A DNA stretch of 24,564 nucleotides, taken from IMG/VR virus record IMGVR_UViG_2563366949_000003. The stretch is one strand, 5' to 3'. Made by a program: the position numbers and the translations under genes. The notes under the pieces are model-generated. The model searched no databases, was not told the origin of the DNA, and saw only the letters and a list, made by a program, of their open reading frames with translations. This document shows positions 2,356 through 23,516 of this stretch, one piece after another (the first letter of the stretch is position 1; each line of letters begins with the position of its first letter). The stretch comes from a virus. Its lineage: Duplodnaviria > Heunggongvirae > Uroviricota > Caudoviricetes.

Positions 2356-3351
2356 GTGACCGTGAGAGCACTACTGACCCCTGAAATTGCCCCGCGTATG
2401 GGGATCGTATTGTTCAGGCCAGGTTCAGAGCTGATGCCCCTGTTTATGCAGGGGCGTGTCCTGCTGGAGCCTGAGCCGGAACGTTATTCATCTTTCGCCA
2501 GTGGTGCCGTTCCGGCGGCATCACAACCGCTGGCGGATGATCCTGCCGTTCGGGCCGTGTTCCGCAATGAGGCAGTGATCCGTCGTGCTGGTGGCGTGGA
2601 ATGTCTTGAAAGCTGGTTACTTCGTGAAAAGGGCTGTCAGTGGCCTCATTCCGGATGGCACAGCGAGAACATGACCACAATGCGACACGCGCCGGGCGCA
2701 ATCCGTCTGTGTTGGCACTGCGATAACCAGTTGCGTGATCAGTTCACGGAACGGCTGGAATCAATGGCAACGGATAACTGTGCCCACTGGGTGTTATCTG
2801 TCGTGCGTCGGGATCTCGGTTTTGATGACAGTCACGTAGTGACAATGCCGGAACTGTGCTGGTGGCTGGTTCGTAATGACCTGGCGGATGCCTTACCGGA
2901 AAGTGCAGCCCGTAAGGCACTGAGATTACCGAAGCCTGTTGTGCCGTCTGTCACCCGGGAAAGTGACCTTGTGCCTTCGGTTCCTGCCACCAGCATCATC
3001 CAGGATAAAGCGAAAAAGGTGCTGGCGCTGAAAGTGGATCCGGAGTCGCCGGAGTCTTTTATGTTACGCCCAAAACGTCGCCGCTGGGTTAATGAAAAGT
3101 ACACGCGCTGGGTTAAGACACAGCCGTGTGCATGTTGTGGAAAGCCCGCTGATGATCCCCACCACCTGATAGGCCACGGTCAGGGTGGAATGGGTACAAA
3201 AGCGCATGACCTTTTTGTGTTGCCTTTGTGCAGAAAGCATCACGACGAGCTGCATGCGAATACCGTGGCATTTGAAGAGAATTATGGCTCCCAGCTGGAG
3301 CTGATATTTCGTTTTATCGATCGTGCGCTGGCAATAGGCGTACTGGCGTAA
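2356..3351 (+). CDS. ydfU: DUF968 family protein (YdfU-like) with C-terminal HNH-like Cys/His motif
   Basis: GTG start one base after the upstream stop. The C-terminus CACCGKPADDPHHLIGHG...CRKHHDELH looks like a zinc-binding HNH-like motif. Its position just upstream of Q matches Qin ydfU-quuQ. Confidence 0.65.
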   Translation: MTVRALLTPEIAPRMGIVLFRPGSELMPLFMQGRVLLEPEPERYSSFASGAVPAASQPLADDPAVRAVFRNEAVIRRAGGVECLESWLLREKGCQWPHSGWHSENMTTMRHAPGAIRLCWHCDNQLRDQFTERLESMATDNCAHWVLSVVRRDLGFDDSHVVTMPELCWWLVRNDLADALPESAARKALRLPKPVVPSVTRESDLVPSVPATSIIQDKAKKVLALKVDPESPESFMLRPKRRRWVNEKYTRWVKTQPCACCGKPADDPHHLIGHGQGGMGTKAHDLFVLPLCRKHHDELHANTVAFEENYGSQLELIFRFIDRALAIGVLA

Positions 3352-3364
3352 GTGGAGAACGAGC

Positions 3365-4117
3365 ATGAACCTTGAAGCTTTACCAAAATATTACTCCCCA
3401 AAATCGCCAAAATTGAGTGATGACGCACCGGCGACAGGCTCGGGTGGTTTAACAATAACAGATGTGATGGCTGCGCAGGGGATGGTGCAGTCGAAAGCTC
3501 CGCTTGGTTTTGCCTTATTCCTGGCAAAAGTTGGTGTTCAGGATCCTCAGTTTGCGATTGAAGGTCTGCTCAATTACGCGATGGCAATGGATAATCCGAC
3601 ATTGAACAAATTGAGTGAAGAAATCCGGTTACAGATCATCCCTTACCTTGTGAATTTTGCCTTTGCTGATTATTCCAGGTCTGCGGCAAGTAAGGCTCGC
3701 TGTGAGTATTGTGCTGGTACTGGATTTCATAATGTATTGCGCGAAGTGGTGAAACACTCCAGAAGTGGGGAATCTGTTATCAAGGAAGAGTGGGTGAAGG
3801 AACTATGTCAGCATTGCCATGGTAAGGGAGAAGTCAGCACAGCGTGCAGAGGGTGTAAGGGGAAAGGTATTGTCCTGGATGAAAAAAGAACCCGGCTTCA
3901 TAGCACGCCTGTTTATAAGGTTTGTGGGCGTTGCAATGGAAACCGGTTTAGTCGTTTACCAACGACACTGGCGCGGTGTCATGTCCAGAAGCTGGTACCA
4001 GACCTGACGGATTATCAGTGGTACAAAGGATATGCAGATGTCATTGATAAACTGGTTACAAAGTGCTGGCAGGAAGAAGCATATGCTGAGGTGCAATTAA
4101 GAAAAGTGACGAGATAA
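3365..4117 (+). CDS. quuQ: Late antiterminator Q (QuuQ type, 250 aa, multiple CxxC zinc motifs)
   Basis: The 250-aa product has three CxxC pairs (CEYCAGTG, CQHCHGKGE, CRGCKGKG) and matches the Qin-type Q antiterminator by length and position upstream of the lysis genes. Confidence 0.75.
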   Translation: MNLEALPKYYSPKSPKLSDDAPATGSGGLTITDVMAAQGMVQSKAPLGFALFLAKVGVQDPQFAIEGLLNYAMAMDNPTLNKLSEEIRLQIIPYLVNFAFADYSRSAASKARCEYCAGTGFHNVLREVVKHSRSGESVIKEEWVKELCQHCHGKGEVSTACRGCKGKGIVLDEKRTRLHSTPVYKVCGRCNGNRFSRLPTTLARCHVQKLVPDLTDYQWYKGYADVIDKLVTKCWQEEAYAEVQLRKVTR

Positions 4118-4367
4118 ATGATTTTCACCGAACGATGGCGACATAACGATTGTATTTTCTAAGGAAACGTGCAAAGAGTTTTCCAATGATGAGCCTTATA
4201 TGCATACCGGTGGAAAATATCAATAAGCCGCGCAGAGTGGTTTTTTTGTGGACATAAACTTTGTGCAGAACGGTAACCATTATGGTTGCCGTGAATGCAG
4301 TTTTTTTACATTGCTGGCTTTTTTAGATTTGTGTTAGTTCTTGATATTAACAAGAAGGGGAAAAGAC

Positions 4368-4469
4368 ATGCTAAAACGGCAGGATATGAAGGAAACGGTT
4401 ATGCGTGAATGTTCCAGTGTGATTAACCATATCATCTGGAGAAGCCATCCTGATGCAGGGAAGAGGTAA
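4368..4469 (+). CDS. Small ORF (33 aa), unknown
   Basis: A GGGGA RBS lies 8-9 nt upstream of ATG 4368; product MLKRQDMKETVMRECSSVINHIIWRSHPDAGKR. It is below the ORF-track length cutoff and has no recognised family. Confidence 0.2.
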   Translation: MLKRQDMKETVMRECSSVINHIIWRSHPDAGKR

Positions 4470-4832
4470 CAGTAACGCGCATCAATCAGGCTGCAAATAA
4501 ATGGCTTACGCCGGAAATCTGGCTATCGATGTATTACCGGTTTGTTACCCATGAAGAAAATTAAGGTGATAACGAAACTGATTTTATAGGTGTCTTGTCA
4601 GAGTGTTGCGATGAAACTTGTGTTGGCAGTGCAGGGAAAACAGTAGGATGAAAATTATAAATTGCTTTAAATTAGCTTGATTTTCCTCATGTTATGAGAT
4701 ATTTGTCTTATATTGCTGGTTAATTATGAAAATTTTTGTAAATCTACAGCAATAAAATCCATATTAATTAAAGCACTAGATGCGTTTCTGATTTGTGCAT
4801 GAAACATACATATCATAATGATTAATTGCATC

Positions 4833-4838
4833 TATAAT
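4833..4838 (+). promoter_or_regulatory. Candidate -10 hexamer TATAAT upstream of small-ORF pair
   Basis: A perfect TATAAT sits 40 nt upstream of ATG 4879 in a very AT-rich stretch. No convincing -35 was found. Confidence 0.2.
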
Positions 4839-4878
4839 TACAGATACAGCATTGTGCTGTTAAAAAACTGGAGTCCCC

Positions 4879-4986
4879 ATGAATACATTATATGTAAGTG
4901 ATTCAAATGAAAAATCTCATGACAGGAATAAAAACAATGAGGATAGTAAGGGTAAGGATAATAAAAAAGACAACCGGAAAGAGTAA
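4879..4986 (+). CDS. Small highly charged ORF (35 aa), unknown
   Basis: GGAG lies 8 nt upstream of ATG 4879; product MNTLYVSDSNEKSHDRNKNNEDSKGKDNKKDNRKE is Lys/Asp/Asn-rich and hydrophilic. Confidence 0.25.
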   Translation: MNTLYVSDSNEKSHDRNKNNEDSKGKDNKKDNRKE

Positions 4987-5021
4987 ATAATCTTTCCTGC
5001 ATAAAAATACTAGGGTGGAAT

Positions 5022-5141
5022 ATGTCAGAACATCCAGATTTTGATGACCGTAAGCCTGATGATGAGCCCGTTGAGCGTCCTGATGAGGGGCAACCATTGA
5101 ACCCTTTTTCACCGGATGATAAAAGAGATCCTATTATTTAG
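5022..5141 (+). CDS. Small acidic proline-rich ORF (39 aa), unknown
   Basis: GGTGG lies 5 nt upstream of ATG 5022; product MSEHPDFDDRKPDDEPVERPDEGQPLNPFSPDDKRDPII. A strong intrinsic terminator follows about 50 nt downstream. Confidence 0.3.
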   Translation: MSEHPDFDDRKPDDEPVERPDEGQPLNPFSPDDKRDPII

Positions 5142-5192
5142 ATATAGCAGAATATAGCCGTTTAAAGTAGGTTGTGTTTTGTTGCTATCCTT

Positions 5193-5221
5193 AAACCACC
5201 TCCACAGGAGGTGGTTTTTTA
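5193..5221 (+). terminator. Rho-independent terminator (11-bp stem AAACCACCTCC / GGAGGTGGTTT, U-tract)
   Basis: Perfect inverted repeat with a 4-nt loop, followed by TTTTTT. It lies between the plus-strand small ORFs and the convergent minus-strand ORF at 5278-5463. Confidence 0.6.
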
Positions 5222-5277
5222 CTAATGGAACATTAATTGGCAGATGTGATTGTGTACGACTTATGGGAGGCTTAAGA

Positions 5278-5463
5278 TTATTTTCTGCCAATAATAAAAC
5301 CAAGCGTTAACCCTATGCTTAGAGCAACCACCACGCTAGTCAGTGGATAATTTCTAAATTTATCTTTAACGTTTTCTTTGCCTCCCTGCAAAGCATCGTC
5401 AGCACATGATGCATATTTTTTGACAGTATTAACTATTTCGTTTTCAGATTGATTTGAAGTCAT
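5278..5463 (-). CDS. DUF883 (ElaB/YqjD/YgaM-like) C-tail-anchored small membrane protein
   Basis: The C-terminus NYPLTSVVVALSIGLTLGFIIGRK matches the ElaB-family tail anchor (hydrophobic helix ending GRK/GRR). The ATG at 5461-5463 gives 61 aa; a TTG at 5562 would give 94 aa, closer to typical family length. Confidence 0.45.
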   Translation of the reverse strand: MTSNQSENEIVNTVKKYASCADDALQGGKENVKDKFRNYPLTSVVVALSIGLTLGFIIGRK

Positions 5464-5916
5464 GTTTGAAGTCCTGATGTTAAGTGGCTTTTTAATTATA
5501 GCAGATATGCTTTCAATGATAGGGCGGAGAGTTGTTATTGAGGTGATACTATGGCCACTCAATCAACATTACATAAAATGACGTTTACTCCTGTTTGGCA
5601 CAGTAGCAGAATTTTGCTTCTGCTACTGAAGTCGCTTTAGCACTAGAATATGCAGATGGATAAAGCAGTTCAGCGTATGTACTGCGTCATGCATATCGGT
5701 CTTGCAGATATGACGAGAAGGGGAGACAAGGTGTGTGTAATGTAGAAGTCTTTAAAGTGCTGTCTGGGATAACTCTATACTGAAGTGCAATTGATAAAAG
5801 TAACACGATAAAGGTTTTTCAATGAAGATGGTAACGTGATGCTTGCATTTTTCAAAAAATATGGATAAAATTTTTTCAACGATGGGCTTTGTATACCCGA
5901 CGTTAAGAAAAAGTAG

Positions 5917-5941
5917 AAAACCCGCTGATGAGCGGGTTTTG
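5917..5941. terminator. Bidirectional hairpin terminator (AAAACCCGCT-GATG-AGCGGGTTTT)
   Basis: The stem is flanked by an A-run on one side and a T-run on the other, so it could terminate either strand. It lies about 290 nt downstream of cspF on the minus strand. Confidence 0.45.
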
Positions 5942-6232
5942 TGCTTTAAATGGGGCAATGGTAATGTTGAATCTCATCCCGGGACTCATGTCTGTTAACT
6001 TATTATTTAGCTGGTGACTTGGTTATTTGCCTGATGTTTAAAATGTTTTCTTCCAGTACAATGTCCCTAAACACAATGAGTCTGCTTATTATATTATTAG
6101 CAGAGCTATTACGGCCAAAGTACAGCATAAGCTTTTAAAGCCAGTCAACCAGTCATCAAGACAGACGGGGTTATTCATAAAAACTCTCCATGTGTGATCC
6201 GATGGGGCCTGAAATTAAAGCTTTAATATAGC

Positions 6233-6445
6233 TCATGAAAGGTAAACATTGGCAGCTGAAGGGCCACGCAGAGCATTTATCCGGCAAAATTCCACGCGTA
6301 ATCCGGTGGTAATTTCTTCTGCATCGCGGAGATTGAGCGCTGAAACATGAAGCTGGACATCGATACGACCATCGGATGGGGTGATAAGACCCTTGCCGCT
6401 TTTGCCGTCAAAGGTTTTGACAATTCCTGTCATTTTACGGGACAA
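6233..6445 (-). CDS. cspF: Cold-shock protein CspF-type paralog
   Basis: The 70-aa product [26 protein letters not shown]... is a cold-shock-domain protein of the CspF/CspH subtype, divergent from cspB as in Qin. Confidence 0.85.
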
Positions 6446-6745
6446 AAAAATTCCTTAATACTGATAACTTGGCGCACTATACACACTTTCCTGAAGAAAG
6501 CTATAGTTTTTTGATGGGGTTGAAGATGGCTGGATGTCTAAAATAAACATTGCTTCATATGTTCAACTATGCGTTAATGATTGCGTCGGTTTGAAGAACA
6601 GACGATATACGAAGTAGTTTACTAAAGCAGTTCTCATTTCAGGTGTTATTCACTTATTCCTTCTTTGAGTCTCTCCAATTAAGTACGAAGTCGTTTCTGT
6701 TATACAAGCCATTTATGCCGAAAGGCTCAAGTTAAGGAATGTAGA

Positions 6746-6961
6746 ATGTCAAATAAAATGACTGGTTTAGTAAAATGGTTTAACGCTGATAAAGGTTTTG
6801 GCTTTATTTCTCCTGTTGATGGTAGTAAAGATGTGTTTGTGCATTTTTCTGCGATTCAGAATGATAATTTTCGAACCTTATTTGAAGGTCAAAAGGTTAC
6901 CTTCTCTGTAGAGAGTGGTGCTAAAGGTCCTGCAGCAGCAAATGTCATAATTACTGATTAA
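6746..6961 (+). CDS. cspB: Cold-shock protein CspB
   Basis: The 71-aa product [51 protein letters not shown]... carries the RNP1/RNP2 motifs and is near-identical to E. coli CspB. A long upstream leader is typical of csp genes. Confidence 0.9.
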
Positions 6962-7242
6962 AATTAATAGTTTGTCTGTATACGATAACGAAGAAGGCTG
7001 ATGCCTGAGTGGAGATACAGACAGAGTGGTGAATATTGGATCTCTTTAATAAATAGTAAGGAGATCCAATACATGAAACAATGGCCAGCATATTTGGCAA
7101 TAACTTAATCAGGAAAAGTATGCTAACCATTGTGGTGAAGTGCAGGTTTGCTGCATGAATAGTTTTACAGCAGAAGCTAACTGCTAGCATAGCAAAACAA
7201 AGTGCGTAAGTGGATGACTCCCACAAAAAGCACCACAATATT

Positions 7243-7267
7243 AAACCCGCTCAGGCGGGTTTTTTAT
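7243..7267. terminator. Hairpin terminator (AAACCCGC-TCAG-GCGGGTTTTTT)
   Basis: GC stem followed by TTTTTTATT on the plus strand. It sits between convergent cspB (+) and the minus-strand zinc-ribbon ORF. Confidence 0.55.
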
Positions 7268-7324
7268 TATCTGCTTTAAATATGTTATTAAAATATAAAA
7301 AATACTTGTTACGAATAAAATCAA

Positions 7325-7495
7325 TCAAGCTACAGCTTTAAGATTTGTCTGGAATACTTTGTTGCAATGAGGGCAGATCAAAAGAGCACCTTTTTGTACT
7401 CTTGAAAAACTGTGTTCTGACTCTTGGGTGCAGTTTGGGCAGGAACATTTAACGAGATAATTACGGCGTGATTTTGAGTCTTTACGTTCTGACAT
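7325..7495 (-). CDS. Small zinc-ribbon protein (CxCPxC...CPHC), unknown function
   Basis: AGGAAA lies upstream of the ATG at 7493-7495. The 56-aa product MSERKDSKSRRNYLVKCSCPNCTQESEHSFSRVQKGALLICPHCNKVFQTNLKAVA has two Cys pairs about 20 residues apart. The track's longer form (to 7546) lacks an RBS. Confidence 0.4.
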   Translation of the reverse strand: MSERKDSKSRRNYLVKCSCPNCTQESEHSFSRVQKGALLICPHCNKVFQTNLKAVA

Positions 7496-7713
7496 AGGCT
7501 TTTCCTGTATAAATGGCCGTATACAGTACACTAAATGTGAAAACATATCTCGTATTATTATTTAATATATGATTTTCTTTTAAAATAATTACCCACATTT
7601 TTAATGTGTCTGTTTTTTAGCGCCGTTGAGAACAACGTTTGCTATAAAAACTAACCCATAGACTCCGATCTTTTCAAACATATTGCACCATCTGTGTACA
7701 TCGGGGTGAGGAT

Positions 7714-7929
7714 ATGAAATCAATGGATAAGTTAACAACAGGTATCGCCTATGGCACATCGGCGGGTAATGCTGGTTTCTGGGCATTGCAGTTACTCGAT
7801 AAAGTAACTCCGTCACAGTGGGCTGCAATCGGTGTGCTGGGTAGTCTGGTTTTTGGCCTGCTGACATATCTGACAAACCTTTATTTCAAGATTAAAGAAG
7901 ACAGGCGTAAGGTTGCGAGAAGAGAGTAA
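7714..7929 (+). CDS. essQ: Holin, phage 21 S-type (class II)
   Basis: The 71-aa product [31 protein letters not shown]... has two transmembrane segments and a charged C-terminus, matching S21/EssQ-type holins. Confidence 0.85.
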
Positions 7930-7933
7930 TCCA

Positions 7934-8485
7934 ATGACTCAAGACTATGAACTGGTTGTGAAAGGAGTTCGCAATTTTGAGAATAAAGTGGCGGTAACTG
8001 TAGCCTTACGGGACAAAAAACACTTTGACGGTGAAATTTTTGACCTGGACATCTCGCTGGACCGTGTTGAAGGTGCCGCGCTGGAGTTTTATGAGGCAGC
8101 AGCCAGAAGGAGCATCAGACAGGTCTTCCTGGATGTTGCTGCCGGGTTATGTGAAGGGGATGAGCAGTCGCCGGAAAAGCGCCCCATAATTTTAGAGGCG
8201 CAGAATGTGTGGATAACCTACAAAGGAAAGCTACCGGGAAGAATTACTGGTTCTCTGAAGACGCCACCGACGGCATTGCGGTCAGAAAAAGATGATATTG
8301 AATCGCCCATTGAAAAACTGGAGGGCAGCGTCGCTGATCTGAATAAAAAATTGTCGGTGCTGATTCCTTCTGAAGATGAAAAAAAACGCCGCGATGAGCA
8401 GTTTGCGGCGTTTTACGATTATTGCATTGAAGTTACTCGCAGGAATTTTGTGAAGATTTTTGAGGAGGGTAAATCTCTTCAGTAA
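7934..8485 (+). CDS. DUF1327 (YdfR-like) protein with C-terminal extension
   Basis: ATG 7934 follows the holin stop. The N-terminus MTQDYELVVKGVRNFENK... resembles Qin YdfR, but this ORF is 183 aa versus about 100 aa recalled for YdfR. Its 3' end overlaps the convergent ORF by 53 nt and contains a hairpin. Confidence 0.5.
   Translation: MTQDYELVVKGVRNFENKVAVTVALRDKKHFDGEIFDLDISLDRVEGAALEFYEAAARRSIRQVFLDVAAGLCEGDEQSPEKRPIILEAQNVWITYKGKLPGRITGSLKTPPTALRSEKDDIESPIEKLEGSVADLNKKLSVLIPSEDEKKRRDEQFAAFYDYCIEVTRRNFVKIFEEGKSLQ
8379..8414 (-). terminator. Intrinsic terminator for minus-strand ORF 8433-8693 (GC stem CGCCGC/GCGGCG, then U8 on the minus strand)
   Basis: The inverted repeat 8387-8392 / 8405-8410 is followed on the minus strand by the complement of an 8-A run. 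It lies about 20 nt past the minus-strand stop. Confidence 0.5.
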
Positions 8486-8693
8486 GCTTATTGGCGGACG
8501 CTGCAATTAATTCAGGAAGGTCCGCAAGGTCATCTGTCAGTGGATATGATGAAAAATCGGCGGCAGTTCTGTTAAGAAGCGCTTTAACTAATTCCTTTTC
8601 CTTCTCCGGCAACAAGTTGATTAGAGCTACGACTGCTTGCCTGAGTGCGATTAAATCAGCAAAAGTTTGTTTTGGTAGATTTGTGTAATCCAT
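8433..8693 (-). CDS. Hypothetical acidic protein (86 aa), convergent to the late operon inside the lysis cassette
   Basis: AGAGG lies 6 nt upstream of the ATG at 8691-8693, and a strong terminator follows the stop. The product MDYTNLPKQTFADLIALRQAVVALINLLPEKEKELVKALLNRTAADFSSYPLTDDLADLPELIAASANKLTEEIYPPQKSSQNSCE has no recognised family. Confidence 0.4.
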   Translation of the reverse strand: MDYTNLPKQTFADLIALRQAVVALINLLPEKEKELVKALLNRTAADFSSYPLTDDLADLPELIAASANKLTEEIYPPQKSSQNSCE

Positions 8694-8806
8694 AGTCGCC
8701 TCTGTGTTTATCAGACTGACATCCTCCTCCCGCCAGTGCCCATCACTGGTGAGGTAAGATTTAACATATCCGGGGATTTGAAGCCGATAAATCCTGATAA
8801 ATATCC

Positions 8807-9834
<1,028 letters not shown>

Positions 9835-10085
9835 ATTAATATTAAATCGGATTATTTTTAGCGCTGAATGTGAAATTTAAATAAAAAGGACTCTTCCATG
9901 AGTCAAAATCCTTGAAATCTTAAGGGTAAGATAAAAGGTCATTAGACAGAATGACACGTTTTATTAATAAATAAAGCTATTGTTTCATTCGTGTGTTTTT
10001 CTTTACAAAAGTAATCCTTGCTATGGTTGGTTAATCATGCGTTAATGGTGTTCTGGTTTGTTACAAAATTATCTGAAGCAGTCAT

Positions 10086-10094
10086 TGTTATAAT
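10086..10094 (+). promoter_or_regulatory. Candidate extended -10 promoter element (TGTTATAAT) for cspI
   Basis: A perfect TGnTATAAT lies about 105 nt upstream of the cspI ATG, consistent with the long leaders of csp genes. It has not been tested. Confidence 0.3.
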
Positions 10095-10197
10095 TTTATT
10101 ATTTGTACCTCTTGAGATTTCCTTGTTGGTTTTTCTCTCTGATATTTTTTTTCGGACCATTCTGCCCAAGGGCTAACTTCTTCAAAAGGTAATAATG

Positions 10198-10410
10198 ATG
10201 TCTAACAAAATGACTGGTTTAGTGAAATGGTTTAACCCTGAAAAAGGTTTTGGTTTCATCACGCCGAAAGATGGTAGCAAAGATGTGTTTGTCCATTTCT
10301 CAGCTATTCAGAGCAACGATTTCAAAACGTTAACTGAGAATCAGGAAGTCGAATTTGGTATTGAGAACGGACCTAAAGGCCCCGCGGCTGTTCATGTTGT
10401 GGCACTTTGA
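10198..10410 (+). CDS. cspI: Cold-shock protein CspI
   Basis: The 70-aa product [70 protein letters not shown] matches CspI as recalled. Confidence 0.9.
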
Positions 10411-10609
10411 GGTAGAAAATATTACAAACCATATTCACTTTAGATGCCCGTGTTGCCATGGTTCTCAGTATAGAACATCATCTTTTGATGTTTCTGACAG
10501 GAATCCTTTCGGGGCAAAATGTATCTTTTGTAAATCAATGATGATTACATTTGATAATATTTCACAATACTTAAATGTTAGCCGTCTGTCGTTAGATTTA
10601 AGAAAGTGA
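10394..10609 (+). CDS. Candidate small zinc-ribbon ORF (CPCCHG...CIFC) downstream of cspI
   Basis: An in-frame ATG at 10394 overlaps the cspI 3' end, and the stop lies 6 nt before the terminator at 10615. The RBS is weak and the start uncertain; the track's TTG start is at 10355. Confidence 0.3.
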
Positions 10610-10614
10610 AAATG

Positions 10615-10638
10615 AAGGCTCCTTCGGGAGCTTTTTTG
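10615..10638 (+). terminator. Rho-independent terminator (GGCTCC-TTCG-GGAGC then TTTTTTG)
   Basis: GC stem with a UUCG tetraloop followed by a U-tract, about 200 nt downstream of cspI. Confidence 0.6.
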
Positions 10639-10681
10639 CTTAGTGTCTAGTCGATGGATACTCACATATTACGGTAACATT

Positions 10682-10912
10682 ATGAAAAAAATAATAGTTT
10701 TTTTTAACTCTGAACCAGCAATGGTAGTGCCAGTGATGACCGGAGTTAACACCATCATGCGTGAATATCCAAATGGCGAAACAACACACCTCACTGTAAT
10801 GGCTGCAGGGTTTCCATCTCTGACCGGAGATCATAAAGTCATTTATGTAGCAGCGGATCGACATGTAACTTCAGAAGAAATTCTGGAAGCAGCAATGAGA
10901 CTCTTGAATTGA
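10682..10912 (+). CDS. Hypothetical protein (76 aa)
   Basis: ATG 10682 is the first ATG of the ORF and has no clear RBS. The stop TGA 10910-10912 lies 4 bp before the IS2 left end and is native, not created by the insertion. No family recognised. Confidence 0.3.
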   Translation: MKKIIVFFNSEPAMVVPVMTGVNTIMREYPNGETTHLTVMAAGFPSLTGDHKVIYVAADRHVTSEEILEAAMRLLN

Positions 10913-11007
10913 TTTGTAGACTGGCCCCCTGAATCTCCAGACAACCAATATCACTTATTTAAGTGATAGTCTTAATACTAGTTTTTAGACTAGTCATTGG
11001 AGAGCAG

Positions 11008-12236: not shown

Positions 12237-12420
12237 GGGCAAATCCAATTTGATTCTAATGCATTGATAATAAATGATAATCATCTTTATCTGTTTGTGT
12301 GAAATTTAGACCGTCGTATGTTGATTATTGCGATGTTTCATCTTATCTTTTATACGTTTGCTCCATATAATTGACACTACTGTGTACCAGGAAAGTCATA
12401 ACAGACTAAAAGAGGAAATG

Positions 12421-12594
12421 ATGAACATTGAAGAGTTAAAAACAAAAACAGAAGCAGATATTTCTGAATATATAACAAAAAAAATCATTGAGCTTAAGAA
12501 AAAGACCGGGAAAGAAGTTACCAGTATCCAGTTTACTGCACGGGAAAAAATGACTGGTCTTGAAAGCTATGATATCAAGATTGATTTAATCTAG
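12421..12594 (+). CDS. gnsB: GnsA/GnsB family protein
   Basis: AGAGGA RBS precedes the ATG. The 57-aa product MNIEELKTKTEADISEYITKKIIELKKKTGKEVTSIQFTAREKMTGLESYDIKIDLI matches the GnsA/GnsB family. Confidence 0.8.
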   Translation: MNIEELKTKTEADISEYITKKIIELKKKTGKEVTSIQFTAREKMTGLESYDIKIDLI

Positions 12595-12650
12595 TCTGTT
12601 TATAGTATTAGCATCAATTTCTTGTCAGATGCTATTCAACAATACAATTT

Positions 12651-12682
12651 ACCCATAAACCTCGTTTTTACGGGGTTTTGTT
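12651..12682 (+). terminator. Putative terminator downstream of gnsB (AAACCTCG-loop-CGGGGTTTTGTT)
   Basis: Imperfect stem with one G-U pair, followed by a T-rich tract. Confidence 0.35.
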
Positions 12683-12889
12683 ATATTTAAACATTACCGA
12701 ATAGATATAAATCTCGATAGTCGGTGGTATTGGTTGTGTGACAATACCTAGTCTTTTCGGTATGCCTGGAGAGAATACAAACGACAGATTATGTAAGGGA
12801 AACGCGCTGAAACTTTCACACTTTCATGCTGAGTGATTTGACGTTATATTTTTAGCCGCAAGTGAAGAGCAAACGCATGGAGCGACAAA

Positions 12890-13096
12890 ATGCATAAAGA
12901 TCAATACACTGATGACTCATCCCTGGATCAGGTCCGTGTAAAAACTATGCTCACTAGCACCATTTCTATGAGTTATCCGGATGTTGTAATTGCATGTATA
13001 GAACATCAAGTGTCTCTGGAAGCATTCAGGGCAATTGAGGCAGCGTTGGTGAAGCACGATAAGAATTCGAAGGATTATTCCCTGGTGGTTGACTGA
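12890..13096 (+). CDS. Hypothetical small protein (68 aa), possibly YbcW/YnfO-like
   Basis: The [71 protein letters not shown] sits where DLP12 and Qin carry small uncharacterised genes. The family assignment is from memory only. Confidence 0.35.
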
Positions 13097-13346
13097 TCAC
13101 CATAACTGCTAACCATTCAAACTATTTCACCTGTGACAGAGTCAATATCGCATTCTGTCACTGTCAGGCTAATACAGAACTACAATTCAACTACTGCAAT
13201 GCCTCGTAATTAGGTGAATTTACAATATCGTCCTGTTCGGATGCCAACTGCATTTCTGAGGATAAGGCGTTTATGACTCACATATTTGTCCCACACGCTC
13301 GCCAGTCCTGTGCGGGGTGGGAGGGGAGGTAAAGAAACCGGGATGT

Positions 13347-13541
13347 TCATCCATCATCACTTTGGATTGATGTATATGCTCTCTTTTCTGACGTTAGTCT
13401 CCGACGGCAGGCTTCAATGACCCAGGCTGAGAAATTCCCAGACCCTTTTTGCTCAAGAGCGATGTTAATTTGTTCAATCATTTGGTTAGGAAAGCGGATG
13501 TTGCGGGTTGTTGTTCTGCGGGTTCTGTTCTTCGTTGACAT
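13347..13541 (-). CDS. DUF3950 (YlcI-like) small protein
   Basis: The 64-aa product MSTKNRTRRTTTRNIRFPNQMIEQINIALEQKGSGNFSAWVIEACRRRLTSEK... resembles YlcI, which lies just upstream of the terminase region in DLP12. Confidence 0.55.
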   Translation of the reverse strand: MSTKNRTRRTTTRNIRFPNQMIEQINIALEQKGSGNFSAWVIEACRRRLTSEKRAYTSIQSDDG

Positions 13542-13740
13542 GAGGTTGCCCCGTATTCAGTGTCGCTGATTTGTATTGTCTGAAGTTGTTTTTACGTTAA
13601 GTTGATGCAGATCAATTAATACGATACCTGCGTCATAATTGATTATTTGACGTGGTTTGATGGCGTAGATGCACGTTGTGACATGTAGATGATAATTATT
13701 ATCATTTTGCGGGTCCTTTCCGGCGATCCGACAGGTTACG

Positions 13741-13752
13741 GGGCGGCGACCT
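13741..13752 (+). other. cosN cohesive-end site (lambda 12-nt overhang GGGCGGCGACCT), within the cos region ~13700-13905
   Basis: CGATCCGACAGGTTACG|GGGCGGCGACCTCGCGGGTTTTCGCTATTTATGAAAATTTTCC matches the junction of the lambda right and left ends. The nu1 start lies 189 bp downstream, as in lambda. Confidence 0.85.
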
Positions 13753-13929
13753 CGCGGGTTTTCGCTATTTATGAAAATTTTCCGGCTTAAGGCGTTTCCG
13801 TTCTTCTTCGTCGTAACTTAATGTTTTTATTTAAAATACCCCCTGAAAAGAAAGGAAACGACAGGTGCTGAAAACGAACTTTTGGGCCTCTGTCGTTTCC
13901 TTTCTCTGTTTTGGGCCGTGGAATGAACA

Positions 13930-14449
13930 ATGGAAGTCAACAAAAAGCAGCTGGCTGACATTTTCGGTGCGAGTATCCGTACCATTCAGAACTGGCAGGA
14001 ACAGGGAATGCCCGTTCTGCGAGGCGGTGGCAAGGGTAATGAGGTGCTTTATGACTCTGCCGCCGTTATAAAATGGTATGCCGAAAGGGATGCTGAAATT
14101 GAGAACGAAAAGCTGCGCCGGGAGGTTGAAGAACTGCTGCAGGCCAGCGAGACAGATCTCCAGCCAGGGACTATTGAGTACGAACGCCATCGACTTACGC
14201 GTGCGCAGGCCGATGCACAGGAGCTGAAAAATGCCAGAGACTCCGCTGAAGTGGTGGAAACCGCATTCTGTACTTTCGTGCTGTCGCGTATCGCAGGTGA
14301 AATTGCCAGTATTCTCGACGGGATCCCCCTGTCGGTGCAGCGGCGTTTTCCGGAACTGGAAAACCGACATGTTGATTTCCTGAAACGGGATATCATCAAA
14401 GCCATGAACAAAGCAGCCGCGCTGGATGAACTGATACCGGGGTTGCTGA

Positions 14450-14475
<26 letters not shown>
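13930..14475 (+). CDS. nu1: Terminase small subunit Nu1
   Basis: The 181-aa product MEVNKKQLADIFGASIRTIQNWQEQGMPVLRGGGKGNEVLYD... is essentially identical to lambda gpNu1. Confidence 0.95.
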
Positions 14476-18156
<3,681 letters not shown>

Positions 18157-18176
<20 letters not shown>

Positions 18177-19476
18177 TCTCCCGCATATTACCAGTATGGC
18201 CTTTAATGAGCCGCTGATGCTTGAACCCGCCTATGCGCGGGTTTTCTTTTGTGCGCTTGCAGGCCAGCTTGGGATCAGCCGCCTGACGGATGCGGTATCC
18301 GGCGACAGCCTGACTGCCGGAGAGGCACCCGCGGCGCTGGCGTTATCCGTTGATGATGACGGACCACGGCAGGCCCGCAGTTATCAGGTCATGAACGGCA
18401 TCGCCGTGCTGCCGGTGTCCGGCACGCTGGTCAGTCGGACGCGAGCGCTGCAGCCGTATTCGGGGATGACCGGTTACAACGGCATTATCGCCCGTCTGCA
18501 ACAGGCTGCCAGCGACCCGATGGTGGACGGCATTCTGCTCGATATGGATACGCCAGGCGGGATGGTGGCAGGGGCATTTGACTGCGCTGACATCATCGCC
18601 CGTGTGCGTGACATAAAGCCGGTATGGGCGCTGGCCAATGACATGAACTGCAGCGCAGGTCAGCTGCTTGCCAGTGCCGCCTCCCGGCGTCTGGTCACGC
18701 AGACCGCCCGGACAGGCTCCATCGGCGTCATGATGGCTCACAGTAATTACGGTGCTGCGCTGGAGAAACAGGGCGTGGAAATCACGCTGATTTACAGCGG
18801 CAGCCATAAGGTGGATGGCAACCCCTACAGCCATCTACCGGATGATGTCCGGGAAACACTGCAGTCCCGGATGGATGCAACCCGCCGGATGTTTGCACAG
18901 AAGGTGTCGGCATATACCGGCCTGTCCGTGCAGGCTGTGCTGGATACCGAGGCTGCAGTGTACAGCGGTCAGGAGGCCATTGATGCCGGACTGGCTGATG
19001 AACTTGTTAACAGTACCGATGCGATCACCATCATGCGTGATGCACTGGATGCACGTAAATCCCGTCTCTCAGGAGGGCGAATGACCAAAGAGACTCAATC
19101 AACAACTGTTTCAGCCACTGCTTCGCAGGCTGACGTTACTGGCGTGGTGCAAGCGACGGAGGGCGAGAACGCCAGCGCTGCGCAGCCGGACGTGAACGCG
19201 CAGATCACCGCAGCTGTTGCGGCAGAAAACAGTCGCATTATGGGGATCCTCAACTGTGAGGAGGCTCACGGACGCGAAGAACAGGCACGCGTGCTGGCCG
19301 AAACCCCCGGTATGACCGTGGAAACGGCCCGCCGCATTCTGGCAGTTGCACCACAGAGTGCACAGGCGCGCAGTGACACTGCGCTGGATCGTCTGATGCA
19401 GGGGGCACCGGCACCGCTGGCTGCAGGTAACCCGGCATCTGATGCCGTTAACGATTTGCTGAACACACCAGTGTAA
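18157..19476 (+). CDS. C: Head protease / minor capsid protein C
   Basis: GTG start at 18157 (VTAELRNLPHI...) gives the 439-aa lambda-like gpC. The track's 18022 start is an in-frame read-through of the B 3' end. Confidence 0.9.
18871..19476 (+). CDS. nu3: Scaffolding protein Nu3 (in-frame internal start within C)
   Basis: An internal ATG at 18871 in the C frame (MDATRRMFAQ...) matches the lambda nu3 arrangement. Confidence 0.75.
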   Translation: MDATRRMFAQKVSAYTGLSVQAVLDTEAAVYSGQEAIDAGLADELVNSTDAITIMRDALDARKSRLSGGRMTKETQSTTVSATASQADVTGVVQATEGENASAAQPDVNAQITAAVAAENSRIMGILNCEEAHGREEQARVLAETPGMTVETARRILAVAPQSAQARSDTALDRLMQGAPAPLAAGNPASDAVNDLLNTPV

Positions 19477-19485
19477 GGGATGTTT

Positions 19486-19818
19486 ATGACGAGCAAAGAA
19501 ACCTTTACCCATTACCAGCCGCTGGGCAACAGTGACCCGGCACATACGGCAACCGCGCCCGGCGGATTGAGTGCGAAAGCGCCTGCAATGACCCCGCTGA
19601 TGCTGGATACCTCCACCCGTAAGCTGGTTGCGTGGGATGGCACCACCGACGGTGCTGCCGTTGGCATTCTGGCGGTTGATGCTGACCAGACCAGCACCAC
19701 GCTGACGTTCTACAAGTCCGGCACGTTCCGTTATGAGGATGTGCTCTGGCCGGAGGCTGCCAGCGACGAGACGAAGAAACGGACCGCGTTTGCCGGAACG
19801 GCAATCAGCATCGTTTAA
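19486..19818 (+). CDS. D: Head decoration protein D
   Basis: The 110-aa product [27 protein letters not shown]... matches lambda gpD. Confidence 0.95.
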
Positions 19819-19837
19819 CCTTACCCTTCATCACTAA

Positions 19838-19861
19838 AGGCCGCCTGTGCGGCTTTTTTTA
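19838..19861 (+). terminator. Hairpin with U-tract between D and E (GGCCGC-CTGT-GCGGCTTTTTTT)
   Basis: Inverted repeat followed by seven T. It probably modulates the D/E expression ratio within the late operon. Confidence 0.5.
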
Positions 19862-19872
19862 CGGGATTTTTT

Positions 19873-20898
19873 ATGTCGATGTACACAACCGCCCAGCTGC
19901 TGGCGGCAAATGAGAAGAAATTTAAGTTTGATCCGCTGTTTCTGCGTCTCTTTTTCCGTGAGAGCTATCCCTTCACCACGGAGAAAGTCTATCTCTCACA
20001 AATTCCGGGACTGGTAAACATGGCGCTGTACGTTTCGCCGATTGTTTCCGGTGAGGTTATCCGCTCCCGTGGCGGCTCCACCTCTGAATTTACACCGGGA
20101 TATGTCAAGCCGAAGCATGAGGTGAATCCGCAGATGACCCTGCGTCGCCTGCCGGATGAAGATCCGCAGAATCTGGCGGACCCGGCTTACCGCCGCCGTC
20201 GCATCATCATGCAGAACATGCGAGACGAAGAGCTGGCCATTGCTCAGGTCGAAGAGATGCAGGCCGTTTCTGCCGTGCTTAAGGGCAAATACACCATGAC
20301 CGGTGAAGCCTTCGATCCGGTTGAAGTGGATATGGGCCGCAGTGCGGCGAACAACATCACACAGTCCGGTGGTACGGAGTGGAGCAAGCGTGACAAGTCC
20401 ACGTATGACCCGACCGACGATATCGAAGCCTATGCGCTGAACGCCAGCGGCGTGGTGAATATCATCGTGTTTGATCCGAAAGGCTGGGCGCTGTTCCGTT
20501 CCTTCAAAGCCGTCAAGGAGAAGCTGGATACCCGTCGCGGCTCTCATTCCGAGCTGGAGACAGCGGTAAAAGACCTGGGCGAAGCGGTGTCCTATAAGGG
20601 GATGTATGGCGATACGGCGATCGTCGTGTATTCCGGACAGTACGTGGAAAACGACGTCAAAAAGAACTTCCTTCCGGACAACACGATGGTGCTGGGGAAC
20701 ACTCAGGCACGCGGTCTGCGCACCTATGGCTGCATTCAGGATGCGGACGCACAGCGCGAAGGCATTAACGCCTCTGCCCGCTACCCGAAAAACTGGGTGA
20801 CCACCGGCGATCCGGCGCGTGAGTTCACCATGATTCAGTCAGCACCGCTGATGCTGCTGGCTGACCCTGATGCGTTCGTGTCCGTACAACTGGCGTAA
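19873..20898 (+). CDS. E: Major capsid protein E
   Basis: The 341-aa product is near-identical to lambda gpE. Confidence 0.95.
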   Translation: MSMYTTAQLLAANEKKFKFDPLFLRLFFRESYPFTTEKVYLSQIPGLVNMALYVSPIVSGEVIRSRGGSTSEFTPGYVKPKHEVNPQMTLRRLPDEDPQNLADPAYRRRRIIMQNMRDEELAIAQVEEMQAVSAVLKGKYTMTGEAFDPVEVDMGRSAANNITQSGGTEWSKRDKSTYDPTDDIEAYALNASGVVNIIVFDPKGWALFRSFKAVKEKLDTRRGSHSELETAVKDLGEAVSYKGMYGDTAIVVYSGQYVENDVKKNFLPDNTMVLGNTQARGLRTYGCIQDADAQREGINASARYPKNWVTTGDPAREFTMIQSAPLMLLADPDAFVSVQLA

Positions 20899-20900
20899 TC

Positions 20901-20927
20901 ATGGCCCTTCGGGGCCATTTTCTCTTT
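20901..20927 (+). terminator. Hairpin between E and FI (ATGGCCC-TTCG-GGGCCAT then T-rich)
   Basis: Perfect 7-bp stem with a UUCG loop followed by TTTCTCTTT. Confidence 0.45.
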
Positions 20928-20939
20928 GTGGAGGAGTCC

Positions 20940-21335
20940 ATGACGAAAGATGAACTGATTGCCCGTCTTCAGGTGCTGGGTGAGCAACTGAACCGTGATG
21001 TCAGCCTGACGGGGACGAAAGAAGAACTGGTGCTCCGTGTGGCAGAGCTGGAAGAGGAGCTTGATGACACGGATGACGCTGCCGGTCAGGACACATCTGT
21101 CAGCCCGGAAAATGCGCTGACCGGACATGAAAATGAGGTTGTATCAGCGCAGCCGGATACCGTGACTGATACGGCTGATCTGGTCACGGTTGTGGCACTG
21201 GTGACGCTGCATACTGATGCACTTCACGCCACGCGGGATGAGGCTGTGGCATTTGTGCTGCCGGGAACGGCGTTCCGTGTCTCTGCCGGTGTGGCAGCTG
21301 AAATGACAGAACGTGGCCTGGCCAGAATGCAATAA
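20940..21335 (+). CDS. FI: DNA-packaging protein FI
   Basis: GGAGGAG RBS precedes ATG 20940 (MTKDELIARLQVLGEQLNRDV...). It matches lambda gpFI and is more divergent than the neighbouring genes. Confidence 0.9.
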   Translation: MTKDELIARLQVLGEQLNRDVSLTGTKEELVLRVAELEEELDDTDDAAGQDTSVSPENALTGHENEVVSAQPDTVTDTADLVTVVALVTLHTDALHATRDEAVAFVLPGTAFRVSAGVAAEMTERGLARMQ

Positions 21336-21346
21336 CGGGAGGCGCT

Positions 21347-21700
21347 GTGGCTGATTTCGATAACCTGTTCGATGCTGCCATTGCCCGCGCCGATGAAACG
21401 ATACGCGGGTACATGGGAACGTCAGCCACCATGACATCCGGTGAGCAGTCCGGCGCTGTGATACGTGGTGTTTTTGATGACCCTGAAAATATCAGCTATG
21501 CCGGACAGGGCGTGCGCGTTGAAGGCTCCAGCCCGTCCCTGTTTGTCCGGACTGATGATGTGCGGCAACTGCGGCGTGGAGACACGCTGACCATCGGTGA
21601 GGAAAACTTCTGGATAGACCGGGTATCGCCGGATGATGGCGGAAGCTGTCATCTCTGGCTTGGGCGTGGCGTTCCGCCTGCCGTTAACCGTCGCCGTTGA
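21347..21700 (+). CDS. FII: Head completion protein FII
   Basis: GTG start; the 117-aa product MADFDNLFDAAIARADETIRGYMG... matches lambda gpFII. Confidence 0.95.
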   Translation: MADFDNLFDAAIARADETIRGYMGTSATMTSGEQSGAVIRGVFDDPENISYAGQGVRVEGSSPSLFVRTDDVRQLRRGDTLTIGEENFWIDRVSPDDGGSCHLWLGRGVPPAVNRRR

Positions 21701-21821
21701 AAGGGGGATGTATGGCCATAAAAGGTCTTGAGCAGGCCGTTGAAAGGGGGATGTATGGCCATACAGGGTCTTGAGCAGGCCGTTGAAAGGGGGATGTATG
21801 GCCATACAGGGTCTTGAGCAG
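21693..21821 (+). repeat. Tandem direct repeat, 3 x 43 bp (GCCGTTGAAAGGGGGATGTATGGCCATA[A/C]A[A/G]GGTCTTGAGCAG), spanning the FII stop and the Z start
   Basis: Units occupy 21693-21735, 21736-21778 and 21779-21821. Units 2 and 3 are identical and differ from unit 1 at two bases. Each unit contains AAGGGGGA followed by ATGGCC; lambda has one copy as recalled. Confidence 0.9.
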
Positions 21822-22376
21822 GCCGTTGAAAACCTCAGCCGTATCAGCAAAACGGCGGTTCCCGGTGCCGCCGCAATGGCCATTAACCGCGTTGCTTCAT
21901 CCGCGATATCGCAGTCGGCGTCACAGGTTGCCCGTGAGACAAAGGTACGCCGGAAACTGGTAAAGGAAAGGGCCAGGCTGAAAAGGGCCACGGTCAAAAA
22001 TCCGCAGGCCAGAATCAAAGTTAACCGGGGGGATTTGCCCGTAATCAGGCTGGGTAACGCGCGGGTTGTCCTGTCCCGACGCAGGCGTCGTAAAAAGGGG
22101 CAGCGTTCATCCCTGAAAGGTGGCGGCAGCGTGCTTGTGGTGGGAAACCGTCGTATTCCCGGCGCGTTTATTCAGCAACTGAAAAATGGCCGGTGGCATG
22201 TCATGCAGCGTGTGGCCGGGAAAAACCGTTACCCCATTGATGTGGTGAAAATCCCGATGGCGGTGCCGCTGACCACGGCGTTTAAACAGAATATTGAGCG
22301 GATACGGCGTGAACGTCTTCCGAAAGAGCTGGGCTATGCGCTGCAGCATCAACTGAGAATGGTAATAAAGCGATGA
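21798..22376 (+). CDS. Z: Tail completion protein Z
   Basis: The ATG at 21798 in the third repeat unit gives a 192-aa product (MAIQGLEQAVENLSRISKTAVPG...) matching lambda gpZ. The track's 21771 start is a TTG read-through. Confidence 0.9.
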   Translation: MAIQGLEQAVENLSRISKTAVPGAAAMAINRVASSAISQSASQVARETKVRRKLVKERARLKRATVKNPQARIKVNRGDLPVIRLGNARVVLSRRRRRKKGQRSSLKGGGSVLVVGNRRIPGAFIQQLKNGRWHVMQRVAGKNRYPIDVVKIPMAVPLTTAFKQNIERIRRERLPKELGYALQHQLRMVIKR

Positions 22377-22768
22377 AACATACTGAACTCCGTGCAGCCG
22401 TACTGGATGCACTGGAGAAGCATGACACCGGGGCGACGCTTTTTGATGGTCGCCCCGCTGTTTTTGATGAGGAAGATTTTCCGGCAATTGCCGTTTATCT
22501 CACCGGCGCTGAATACACGGGCGAAGAGCTGGACAGCGATACCTGGCAGGCGGAGCTGCATATTGAAGTTTTCCTGCCTGCTCAGGTGCCGGATTCAGAG
22601 CTGGATTCGTGGATGGAGTCCCGGATTTATCCGGTGATGAGCGATATCCCGGCACTGTCAGATTTGATCACCAGTATGGTGGCCAGTGGCTATGACTACC
22701 GGCGCGACGATGATGCGGGCCTGTGGAGTTCAGCCGATCTGACTTATGTCATTACCTATGAAATGTGA
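22373..22768 (+). CDS. U: Tail terminator protein U
   Basis: The 131-aa product matches lambda gpU; ATGA overlap with the Z stop. Confidence 0.95.
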
Positions 22769-22775
22769 GGACGCT

Positions 22776-23516
22776 ATGCCTGTACCAAATCCTGTAATGC
22801 CGGTGAAAGGTGCCGGGACCACCCTGTGGGTTTATAAGGGGAGCGGTGACCCTTATGCGAACCCGCTTTCAGACGTTGACTGGTCGCGTCTGGCAAAAGT
22901 TAAAGACCTGACGCCCGGCGAACTGACCGCTGAGTCCTATGACGACAGCTATCTCGATGATGAAGATGCGGACTGGACTGCGACCGGGCAGGGGCAGAAA
23001 TCAGCCGGAGATACCAGCTTCACGCTGGCGTGGATGCCCGGAGAGCAGGGGCAGCAGGCGCTGCTGGCGTGGTTTAATGAAGGTGATACCCGTGCCTATA
23101 AAATCCGCTTCCCGAACGGCACGGTCGATGTGTTCCGTGGCTGGGTCAGCAGCATCGGTAAGGCGGTGACGGCAAAGGAAGTGATCACCCGTACGGTGAA
23201 GGTCACCAATGTGGGTCGTCCGTCAATGGCAGAAGAACACAGTACGGTGACGGCGGCAACCGGTATGACCGTGACGCCAGCCAGCGCTTCCGTAGTGAAA
23301 GGGCAGAGCACCACGCTGACCGTGGCATTCCAGCCGGAAGGCGTAACCGACAAGAGCTTCCGTGCGGTGTCAGCGGATAAAACAAAAGCTACCGTGTCGG
23401 TCAGTGGTATGACCATCACCGTGAATGGCGTTGCTGCAGGTAAGGTCAACATTCCGGTCGTATCCGGTAATGGTGAGTTTGCTGCGGTTGCAGAAATTAC
23501 CGTCACCGCCAGTTAA
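22776..23516 (+). CDS. V: Major tail tube protein V
   Basis: GAGGA RBS precedes ATG 22776; the 246-aa product [22 protein letters not shown]... matches lambda gpV. Confidence 0.95.

Follow-up and report, generated by a model that had tools for sequence, protein, structure and literature searches.

Here we report that the junction between the head-tail joining gene FII and the tail completion gene Z of a lambdoid E. coli prophage carries three head-to-tail copies of a 43-bp unit, each holding the Z ribosome-binding site and start codon. The array lies in a stretch of 24,564 nucleotides (hereafter the window) taken from IMG/VR record IMGVR_UViG_2563366949_000003, and the triplication described in the original prediction was recovered by Tandem Repeats Finder, by direct reading and by a regex parse. 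We consider it probable that this is a real FII-Z copy-number variant built in two steps, an old duplication that placed a Q-type unit behind a K-type unit and a recent expansion by one unit that turned K-Q into K-Q-Q.

The array and the genes around it

The window combines a Qin-like early/lysis region with a head-tail module in lambda order, as expected of a lambdoid prophage. The head-tail ORFs A, W, B, C, D, E, FI, FII, Z, U, V, G and T are intact and all of lambda length, and FII and Z form a pair of the lambda type, with a Phage_attach domain followed by Minor_tail_Z (Pfam) within the gene order E-FI-FII-Z-U-V-G-T.

Tandem Repeats Finder places 3.2 head-to-tail copies of the unit at 21693-21831 (period 43, 97% matches, no indels, score 264). 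The whole array is 139 bp long; it is the sole strong tandem repeat that the program reports in the 24.5-kb window and lies far above chance. Every unit contains AAGGGGGA plus ATGGCC. Units 2 and 3 are the same sequence, and two bases set them apart from unit 1 (21764/21766 against 21721/23), as had been noticed from the letters of the window and as direct reading and the regex parse agree. We refer to units with ATAAAAGG (unit 1) as K type and to units with ATACAGGG (units 2 and 3) as Q type, which gives the unit order K-Q-Q. Each junction of the array holds one GCCGTTGAAA, and the Q-to-Q unit junction reads GGTCTTGAGCAGGCCGTTGAAAGGGGGATGTATGGCCATACAGGG with ATACAG before it. The features at the junction are as follows.

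21347-21700, + strand: FII, head-tail joining protein, 117 aa (ORF list; Pfam Phage_attach, E 1e-19)
21693-21735, + strand: unit 1, K type, full sequence GCCGTTGAAAGGGGGATGTATGGCCATAAAAGGTCTTGAGCAG (direct reading, regex parse, Tandem Repeats Finder)
Parts of unit 1, + strand: GCCGTTGAAA, then SD AAGGGGGA at 21701-08, then ATG at 21712 and ATAAAAGG
21736-21778, + strand: unit 2, Q type, with SD at 21744-51, ATG at 21755 and ATACAGGG
21779-21821, + strand: unit 3, Q type, with SD at 21787-94 and ATG at 21798 (the working start of Z); none of the relatives has this unit
21822-21831, + strand: closing 10-mer GCCGTTGAAA, Z codons 9-11 plus one base, the short direct repeat bounding the unit
21712-21774, + strand: short ORF 1, 20 aa MAIKGLEQAVERGMYGHTGS, stop at 21772-74, out of frame with Z
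21755-21817, + strand: short ORF 2, 20 aa MAIQGLEQAVERGMYGHTGS, stop at 21815-17, out of frame with Z
21798-22376, + strand: Z, tail completion protein, 192 aa, MAIQG allele (Pfam Minor_tail_Z, E 6e-81)

The TGA stop of FII (21698-21700) falls within the first copy of the 10-mer, and the repeat leaves the FII protein unchanged, the same as FII of strain CEA212U. The Z protein of the window differs from lambda Z at K4Q and K84R only. The ORF list agrees with the original prediction that the third ATG (21798) alone is in frame with Z and that the first two lead to 20-aa peptides, for which no Pfam match was found. Short ORF 1 stops 23 nt 5' of the Z ATG, and short ORF 2 crosses the SD and ATG of Z and ends 17 nt within the gene. 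In the one-, two- and three-copy forms alike, the ATG of the final unit is in frame with the full 192-aa Z, and the Z frame survives any change of copy number because each unit supplies an SD and an ATG while the last unit alone is contiguous with the body of Z. In annotation, the Z gene must begin at the third ATG, with no genes called from the two ATGs before it.

A frameshift fusion of the short ORFs to Z was considered and rejected, since inspection by eye showed no X_XXY_YYZ slippery site in the right frame. No promoter or terminator created by the repeat was found, and an Rfam search of the window returned no family at the repeat, its sole matches being cspA elements elsewhere in the window.

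Lambda and the flanking 10-mer

The FII-Z stretch is about 97% identical in nucleotide sequence to lambda, 434 and many other phages, and lambda (NC_001416) and phage 434 each have one copy of the unit. The lambda alignment also bears out the earlier statements that lambda is single-copy and that everything downstream is shifted by 86 bp. Lambda FII and Z (NC_001416 7612-7965 and 7977-8555) share with the window the genes, their order, the SD, the start context, the protein lengths (FII 117 aa, Z 192 aa) and the 11-nt spacing from the FII stop to the first ATG. The window differs in having three initiation cassettes where lambda has one, a gap of 97 nt rather than 11 between the FII stop and the Z ATG, and an upstream 10-mer that is perfect (T) where that of lambda is imperfect (C).

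The original prediction held that the lambda unit is bounded by a 10-bp direct repeat at the FII stop and at Z codons 8-11. The location at the FII stop was right, but the match in lambda is not perfect, the upstream 10-mer of lambda and 434 being GCCGCTGAAA, which agrees with GCCGTTGAAA at 9/10 positions, and the downstream copy begins at codon 9 rather than codon 8. Single-copy units are accordingly flanked by a direct repeat of 9/10 (lambda, 434) or 10/10 (strain A36). Where the upstream 10-mer has T, the last Arg codon of FII is changed synonymously and the direct repeat becomes perfect. Only 8 complete-genome records show this T form; six are two-copy arrays and one is a single-copy K allele (A36). 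The C form is found in three arrays, those of SCU-172, L007 and L008. Judged from these sequences, the perfect 10-mer is nearly limited to array-bearing prophages, and repeat and array appear to travel together. Phages like A36 may represent the substrate for the duplication, or the product of its contraction.

Copy number across sequence collections

A search with the FII-Z region found 5,327 places in 3,645 of 5,426 complete E. coli genomes, where a match span of 665 bp corresponds to one copy, 708 bp to two and 751 bp to three. One copy is present in more than 99% of the E. coli prophages with this module, and no 751-bp span was seen among the complete E. coli genomes. The original prediction had named a triplication common and invariant among lambda-like prophages as an outcome that would speak against a recent event. 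This outcome was not seen: the triplication was found only in the window, and even the two-copy form occupies about 0.15% of FII-Z sites.

Arrays were also sought with a junction 41-mer (or 39-mer) that has no 28-mer in common with single-copy sequence, such that megablast seeds on arrays only. Among complete E. coli sequences the 41-mer matched 7 of 20,395 records at 8 places, representing 6 distinct genomes (one deposit is a duplicate). All of these matches begin at query base 3, which marks a K-to-Q junction, and the 41-mer search gave no Q-to-Q junction in complete E. coli genomes. Within the 50,697 phage records of INPHARED only PhiR49_1 and PhiR49_1_star matched, which are one phage under two records. 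IMG/VR yielded 3 contigs with a single junction in each and the JGI metagenomes 2 contigs; the GTDB species representatives and the PLSDB plasmids gave no match. Looking up the exact Z protein brought in two draft genomes with an FII-Z gap of 54 nt, which corresponds to two copies, along with many others with the 11-nt gap. Every fetched array was parsed as a K unit followed by a Q unit, the window alone being K-Q-Q, and no second three-copy array was present in complete E. coli, INPHARED, IMG/VR, the GTDB representatives, the JGI metagenomes or PLSDB. Copy number is therefore polymorphic (1, 2, 3) among close relatives with shared flanks.

The solitary standing of the three-copy form invites the explanation that its third unit arose as an error of assembly or of consensus calling, or from a mixed population merged into one consensus, and that the true prophage has a two-copy K-Q array. 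The lack of a further three-copy array in any searched collection is in keeping with such an error, as are the identity of units 2 and 3, which a mis-resolved loop in the assembly graph would produce, and the two copies of CEA212U, the closest relative. We nevertheless regard an artefact as improbable. The array is merely 139 bp long, and its periodic Q-Q stretch of about 108 bp, without a repeated k-mer above about 65, should be resolved by modern assemblers; errors of this type would be expected mostly to collapse copies and seldom to add them. The complete 1,331-bp IS element in the window suggests long reads or a finished assembly, and the occurrence of the two-copy form in many independent assemblies indicates that the locus is truly variable.

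Evidence for an old duplication and a recent third unit

K-Q arrays are found on FII/head backgrounds that differ by up to about 2.4%: PhiR49_1 has 43 mismatches in 1.8 kb and L007 has 43 mismatches in 2.7 kb, the array of L008 follows yet another FII 3' end, and the upstream 10-mer of array-bearing prophages may carry either C or T. The genome of MSB1_4I carries K-Q arrays in two different prophages. The differing backgrounds, together with the two MSB1_4I prophages, argue that the duplication is old enough to have been transferred by recombination.

The nearest relative of the window is found in strain CEA212U and has a K-Q array. It shows 3 mismatches to the window over 1-10916 and none over 12248-21788 (9,541 bp, 100% identity), and the window has in addition the 1,331-bp IS insertion and the extra unit. 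The third unit appears to be recent, since CEA212U is K-Q and yet matches the window perfectly over the upstream 9.5 kb. The recent event is consequently not a direct jump from a lambda-like single copy to three units and is better described as a step of one unit from an older and widely dispersed K-Q duplication. The earlier suggestion of slippage, or else unequal recombination, is supported by the series of one, two and three copies, by the flanking repeat of 9-10 bp with a single copy of it between units, and by the presence of exactly the first two units in CEA212U.

Directly 3' of the array the window and CEA212U part company over a short distance.

21896-23003, + strand: patch of 9 SNPs versus CEA212U, of which Z holds 7 and V 2; both flanks identical

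The upstream 9.5 kb and the following 1.56 kb are free of SNPs between the two, and SNP density is 8.1 per kb in the patch versus 0.14 per kb elsewhere (clustering P ~5e-9 after correction). The patch looks like a recombination tract whose start is at most 75 bp past the array. The two-copy prophages L011 and L014 are the same as the window over the comparable 2.7 kb upstream and carry differing SNP patchworks in the 21896-23003 stretch. On this comparison, the start of the tail module just 3' of the array has repeatedly exchanged sequence with other lambdoid prophages. If the nine SNPs record an exchange with another prophage, simple intramolecular slippage is not the sole route by which the third unit could have arisen.

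The patch raises the question of whether one event made both, namely an out-of-register crossover with a co-resident lambdoid prophage that left the SNPs and the third unit together. Several observations are compatible with this: the tight bunching of the SNPs immediately beyond the array, the patchworks of L011 and L014 in that same stretch, the presence of several copies of the module in many E. coli genomes, and the arrays in two prophages of MSB1_4I. We regard this as possible but rather unlikely, because no donor with the Z-V haplotype of the window was found (the best match is 99.3%), because the alleles of the relatives are kept at 21860/21863, which moves the start of the tract from a lambda-like donor to 30-75 bp past the array, and because L011 and L014 have similar patches yet two copies only.

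MAIQG as an allele of Z

The MAIQG N-terminus of Z had been ascribed to the repeat. Its presence was read correctly, but it is not a consequence of the repeat, as single-copy prophages carry MAIQG too. The exact MAIQG Z protein is present in 415 blocks of the protein collection, and in 8 of the 10 places shown it has the ordinary single-copy spacing after FII. A Q-specific 32-mer occurs at 261 places in 239 complete genomes, about 5% of FII-Z sites, only 8 of these places being within arrays. The K and Q unit types both occur as single-copy alleles, and from its distribution MAIQG is to be seen as a natural Z allele rather than as a by-product of the repeat. A K-Q array could have come from an out-of-register exchange between K-type and Q-type phages or, equally, from a duplication followed by exchange.

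A proposed two-step origin

Based on these observations, we propose the following course for the two-step origin favored above. In the older step, recombination between the GCCG(C/T)TGAAA repeats at the FII stop and at Z codons 9-11 would have duplicated the 43-bp Z initiation region, and the resulting array of a K unit and a Q unit would then have spread by recombination onto several lambdoid prophage backgrounds. In the recent step, within the lineage of the window, the units would have mispaired by one register, through either replication slippage or unequal exchange, with unit 2 of one strand or chromatid presumably paired with unit 1 of the other. If the switch point fell in the 22 nt that follow the K/Q sites, a second Q unit and the order K-Q-Q would result, and a switch 5' of these sites should yield K-K-Q instead. 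A DNA hairpin was rejected as a significant driver of slippage; the centroid fold of the DNA does show the stem between units 2 and 3, but with z = -1.1 the fold of the array is no better than that of shuffled sequences.

The consequences for Z would be small in this scheme. The 20-aa peptides are probably by-products. The 14-bp hairpin between units 2 and 3 would make initiation at Z lean more on ribosomes that terminate at FII and reach Z by way of short ORF 1, and short ORF 2 would compete with Z. The net effect would be a modest change of Z output, probably downward, which the phage would tolerate given the low copy number of Z in the virion. gpZ, a minor component of the virion, is not resolved in lambda cryo-EM structures (PMC10721106, PMC12617516). 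The two-copy form is present in the deposited genome of phage PhiR49_1, and we infer from the host field of that record, which gives a laboratory host, that a two-copy phage is viable. The best reading is that the variant is tolerated, being near-neutral or mildly Z-lowering and probably harmless. The three-copy allele, which is known from one assembly, could also be a transient, mildly deleterious state or an error.

Predicted RNA structure and Z translation

RNA folding predicts two elements that involve the start codons of the array.

21752-21808, + strand: predicted inter-unit hairpin of 14 bp, in which TGTATGGCCATACA of unit 2 (21752-65) pairs with unit 3 (21795-808)
21876-21883, + strand: fourth ATGGCCAT palindrome, within Z (RNA folding)

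The start codon of the Q unit lies within the 14-nt palindrome TGTATGGCCATACA, with which the K unit is compatible over 12 nt. The hairpin of units 2 and 3 is predicted at -29.2 kcal/mol (z = -4.5) and would bury both ATG2 and the Z ATG; in the two-copy mRNA, units 1 and 2 are predicted to pair over 12 bp. The single-copy mRNA already has its start mostly paired according to the folding (P unpaired 0.08), the predicted partner being the ATGGCCAT at 21876-83, which is also the predicted partner of ATG1 in the three-copy mRNA. The predicted costs of opening the Z ribosome-binding site are given below; like all RNA folds here, they refer to equilibrium folding of 300-400 nt excerpts of a long and heavily translated late transcript, with co-transcriptional folding and ribosome traffic ignored, and we attach little weight to them.

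One copy: 13.8 kcal/mol
Two copies: 11.6 kcal/mol
Three copies: 17.8 kcal/mol
Three copies, ribosome at the FII stop: 20.7 kcal/mol
Three copies, ribosome at the short ORF 1 stop: 11.8 kcal/mol

These predictions make a relay of ribosomes from FII through short ORF 1 to Z plausible, and on the same model short ORF 2 should interfere with initiation at Z.

The array might be taken further, as an adaptive translational device in which a relay over the short ORFs operates and copy number serves as a heritable dial for the dosage of Z. Ribosomes that finish FII would start short ORF 1, melt the hairpin of units 2 and 3 and arrive 23 nt 5' of the Z start, so that translation upstream would determine how much Z is made. 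Such a device would account for the same SD and ATG in every unit, for the stability of the predicted hairpin (-29.2 kcal/mol, z = -4.5), and for the cheaper opening predicted for the Z site once a ribosome occupies the short ORF 1 stop, 11.8 as against 17.8-20.7 kcal/mol. The geometry of that stop relative to the Z start resembles the natural arrangement of FII stop and Z start; the two-copy allele, moreover, has lasted and dispersed over backgrounds. We consider this very unlikely all the same. One copy suffices in more than 99.8% of the prophages with the module, the three-copy form is unique, and no covariation or conservation backs the structure, since the units are recent copies of one another. 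Short ORF 2 would occlude the Z start, and the palindrome is mostly an accident of ATG-GCC-AT.

Highly doubtful, to our minds, is the broader proposal that the FII-Z junction of lambdoid phages is a naturally copy-number-variable initiation cassette in which added units, each bringing a short ORF and a hairpin over the start codon, gate Z progressively via ribosomes relayed from FII. Were it true, the rare perfect 10-mer and the palindromes between units would make copy number mutable, and the junction would provide a heritable, frame-safe dial for the dosage of a tail-completion protein; it might also be a spot where prophages sharing a host exchange sequence unusually often.

Relation to known systems

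Tandem duplications at short homologies are classically known in E. coli, and the array is most likely a fresh instance of a known event, microhomology-bounded tandem amplification, rather than a new kind of element. It shares with such amplifications the head-to-tail copies, the flanking direct repeat of 9-10 bp, the single copy of that repeat between units and a copy number that differs among close relatives. Segmental amplifications of T4 (dmd-tifA) are bounded by microhomologies of 6-10 bp and leave one copy between the repeats (PMC9391042). The FII-Z unit departs from the T4 type in being tiny, 43 bp versus 0.5 kb or more, and in lacking a whole gene, since it comprises a ribosome-binding site, a start codon and 8 codons only; the array is also low-copy, resides in a prophage with no known selective agent, and does not come from laboratory selection.

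The arrangement of the short ORFs also bears a superficial likeness to a second kind of system. In leader-peptide or upstream-ORF coupling, known from erm-type leaders and from coupled gene pairs of phages, a hairpin masks a downstream start until a short ORF is translated. The array has upstream short ORFs with their own SD (AAGGGGGA before ATG 21712 and ATG 21755) and a predicted hairpin that buries the downstream SD and ATG, with its 5' arm within a short ORF whose stop lies just upstream. It is unlike such leaders in that the arrangement is accidental, the outcome of duplication, with no sensing function and with an overlapping second short ORF. Nor is it conserved as a leader peptide would be, with one copy at more than 99.8% of sites, two at about 0.15% and three only in the window.

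Like phase-variable contingency repeats, the array is prone to slippage, sits where a gene begins and has a period that is not a multiple of three. Here, by contrast, Z cannot be switched off, the unit is 43 bp as against 1-7 bp, and the only copy numbers seen are 1, 2 and 3; we rejected phase variation, as the final unit always gives an in-frame Z start. An iteron or operator array was likewise rejected, given that nearly all relatives are without the repeat, that the site is a coding junction of a late operon and that it shows no promoter-like site or Rfam family.

The current understanding of lambda biology is unchanged by the array, which will not surprise a specialist. It illustrates that a duplication at microhomologies can be maintained at the boundary of the head and tail modules, pass from one prophage to another and grow there. 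The natural series of one, two and three copies of the same SD/ATG cassette offers a system for testing how translational coupling, reinitiation and competition between start sites work in a phage late operon, and the copy number of the 43-bp unit can serve as a typing and assembly marker that separates otherwise identical prophages.

Probable exchange between prophages

Two observations bear on probable exchange between lambdoid prophages:

NZ_LR898874.1 (strain MSB1_4I), about 2642689 and 3787820-3787875 (locus L022): K-Q arrays
Window 21896-23003: cluster of 9 SNPs, in the comparison with the nearest-relative prophage, that of CEA212U

In MSB1_4I, a single E. coli genome, a K-Q two-copy array is present in each of two different lambdoid prophages, which suggests that the K-Q allele has been copied between co-resident prophages.

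The SNPs of the cluster fall in Z (7) and V (2), and both of its flanks are 100% identical to CEA212U. SNP density against this relative is 8.1 per kb within 21896-23003 versus 0.14 per kb elsewhere, and the near-identical two-copy prophages L011 and L014 carry different SNP patchworks across the same stretch. Taken together, the cluster and the differing patchworks indicate, on comparison of sequences, that the start of the tail module has undergone short exchanges with other prophages, and more than once.

Sequence elements in and around the array

Window, last codon of FII, 21695-21697; strain A36 (locus L020), 405-414: perfect upstream 10-mer GCCGTTGAAA
Window 21876-21883, within Z; lambda (L004), about 547-554: further ATGGCCAT palindrome

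The perfect form of the upstream 10-mer, which arises from a synonymous CGC to CGT change in the last codon of FII, is nearly limited to prophages with the array: among complete-genome records it has eight carriers, A36 being the sole single-copy case. Three arrays have the common C form instead.

The 8-mer ATGGCCAT occurs five times in the window (0.69 expected), and its copy at 21876-21883 codes for M-A-I, as at the Z start. In single-copy mRNA, lambda included, this internal palindrome is the predicted partner of the Z start codon, and it may natively attenuate Z initiation. Also inside Z is a small 15-bp tandem repeat (21967-21999; 2.2 copies, 83% match), located in the lysine/arginine-rich stretch KERARLKRATVK.

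Other features of the window

6585-7024 and 10040-10456: two matches over the full length of Rfam RF01766 (cspA thermoregulator 5'UTR), at 159 and 110 bits
10917-12247: IS3-family element, 1,331 bp, with two ORFs (HTH_Tnp_1 and rve)

The IS3-family element is IS2-like, judged by size, by the sequence of the ends (TAGACTGGCCCC...GGGGCAAATCCA) and by this pair of ORFs. It sits at the end of a ynfN-like gene, with a target duplication of 5 bp (ATTTG); the otherwise near-identical prophage of CEA212U lacks it. The RF01766 matches precede cold-shock genes carried by the prophage (cspB-like and cspI-like), as in Qin-type prophages.
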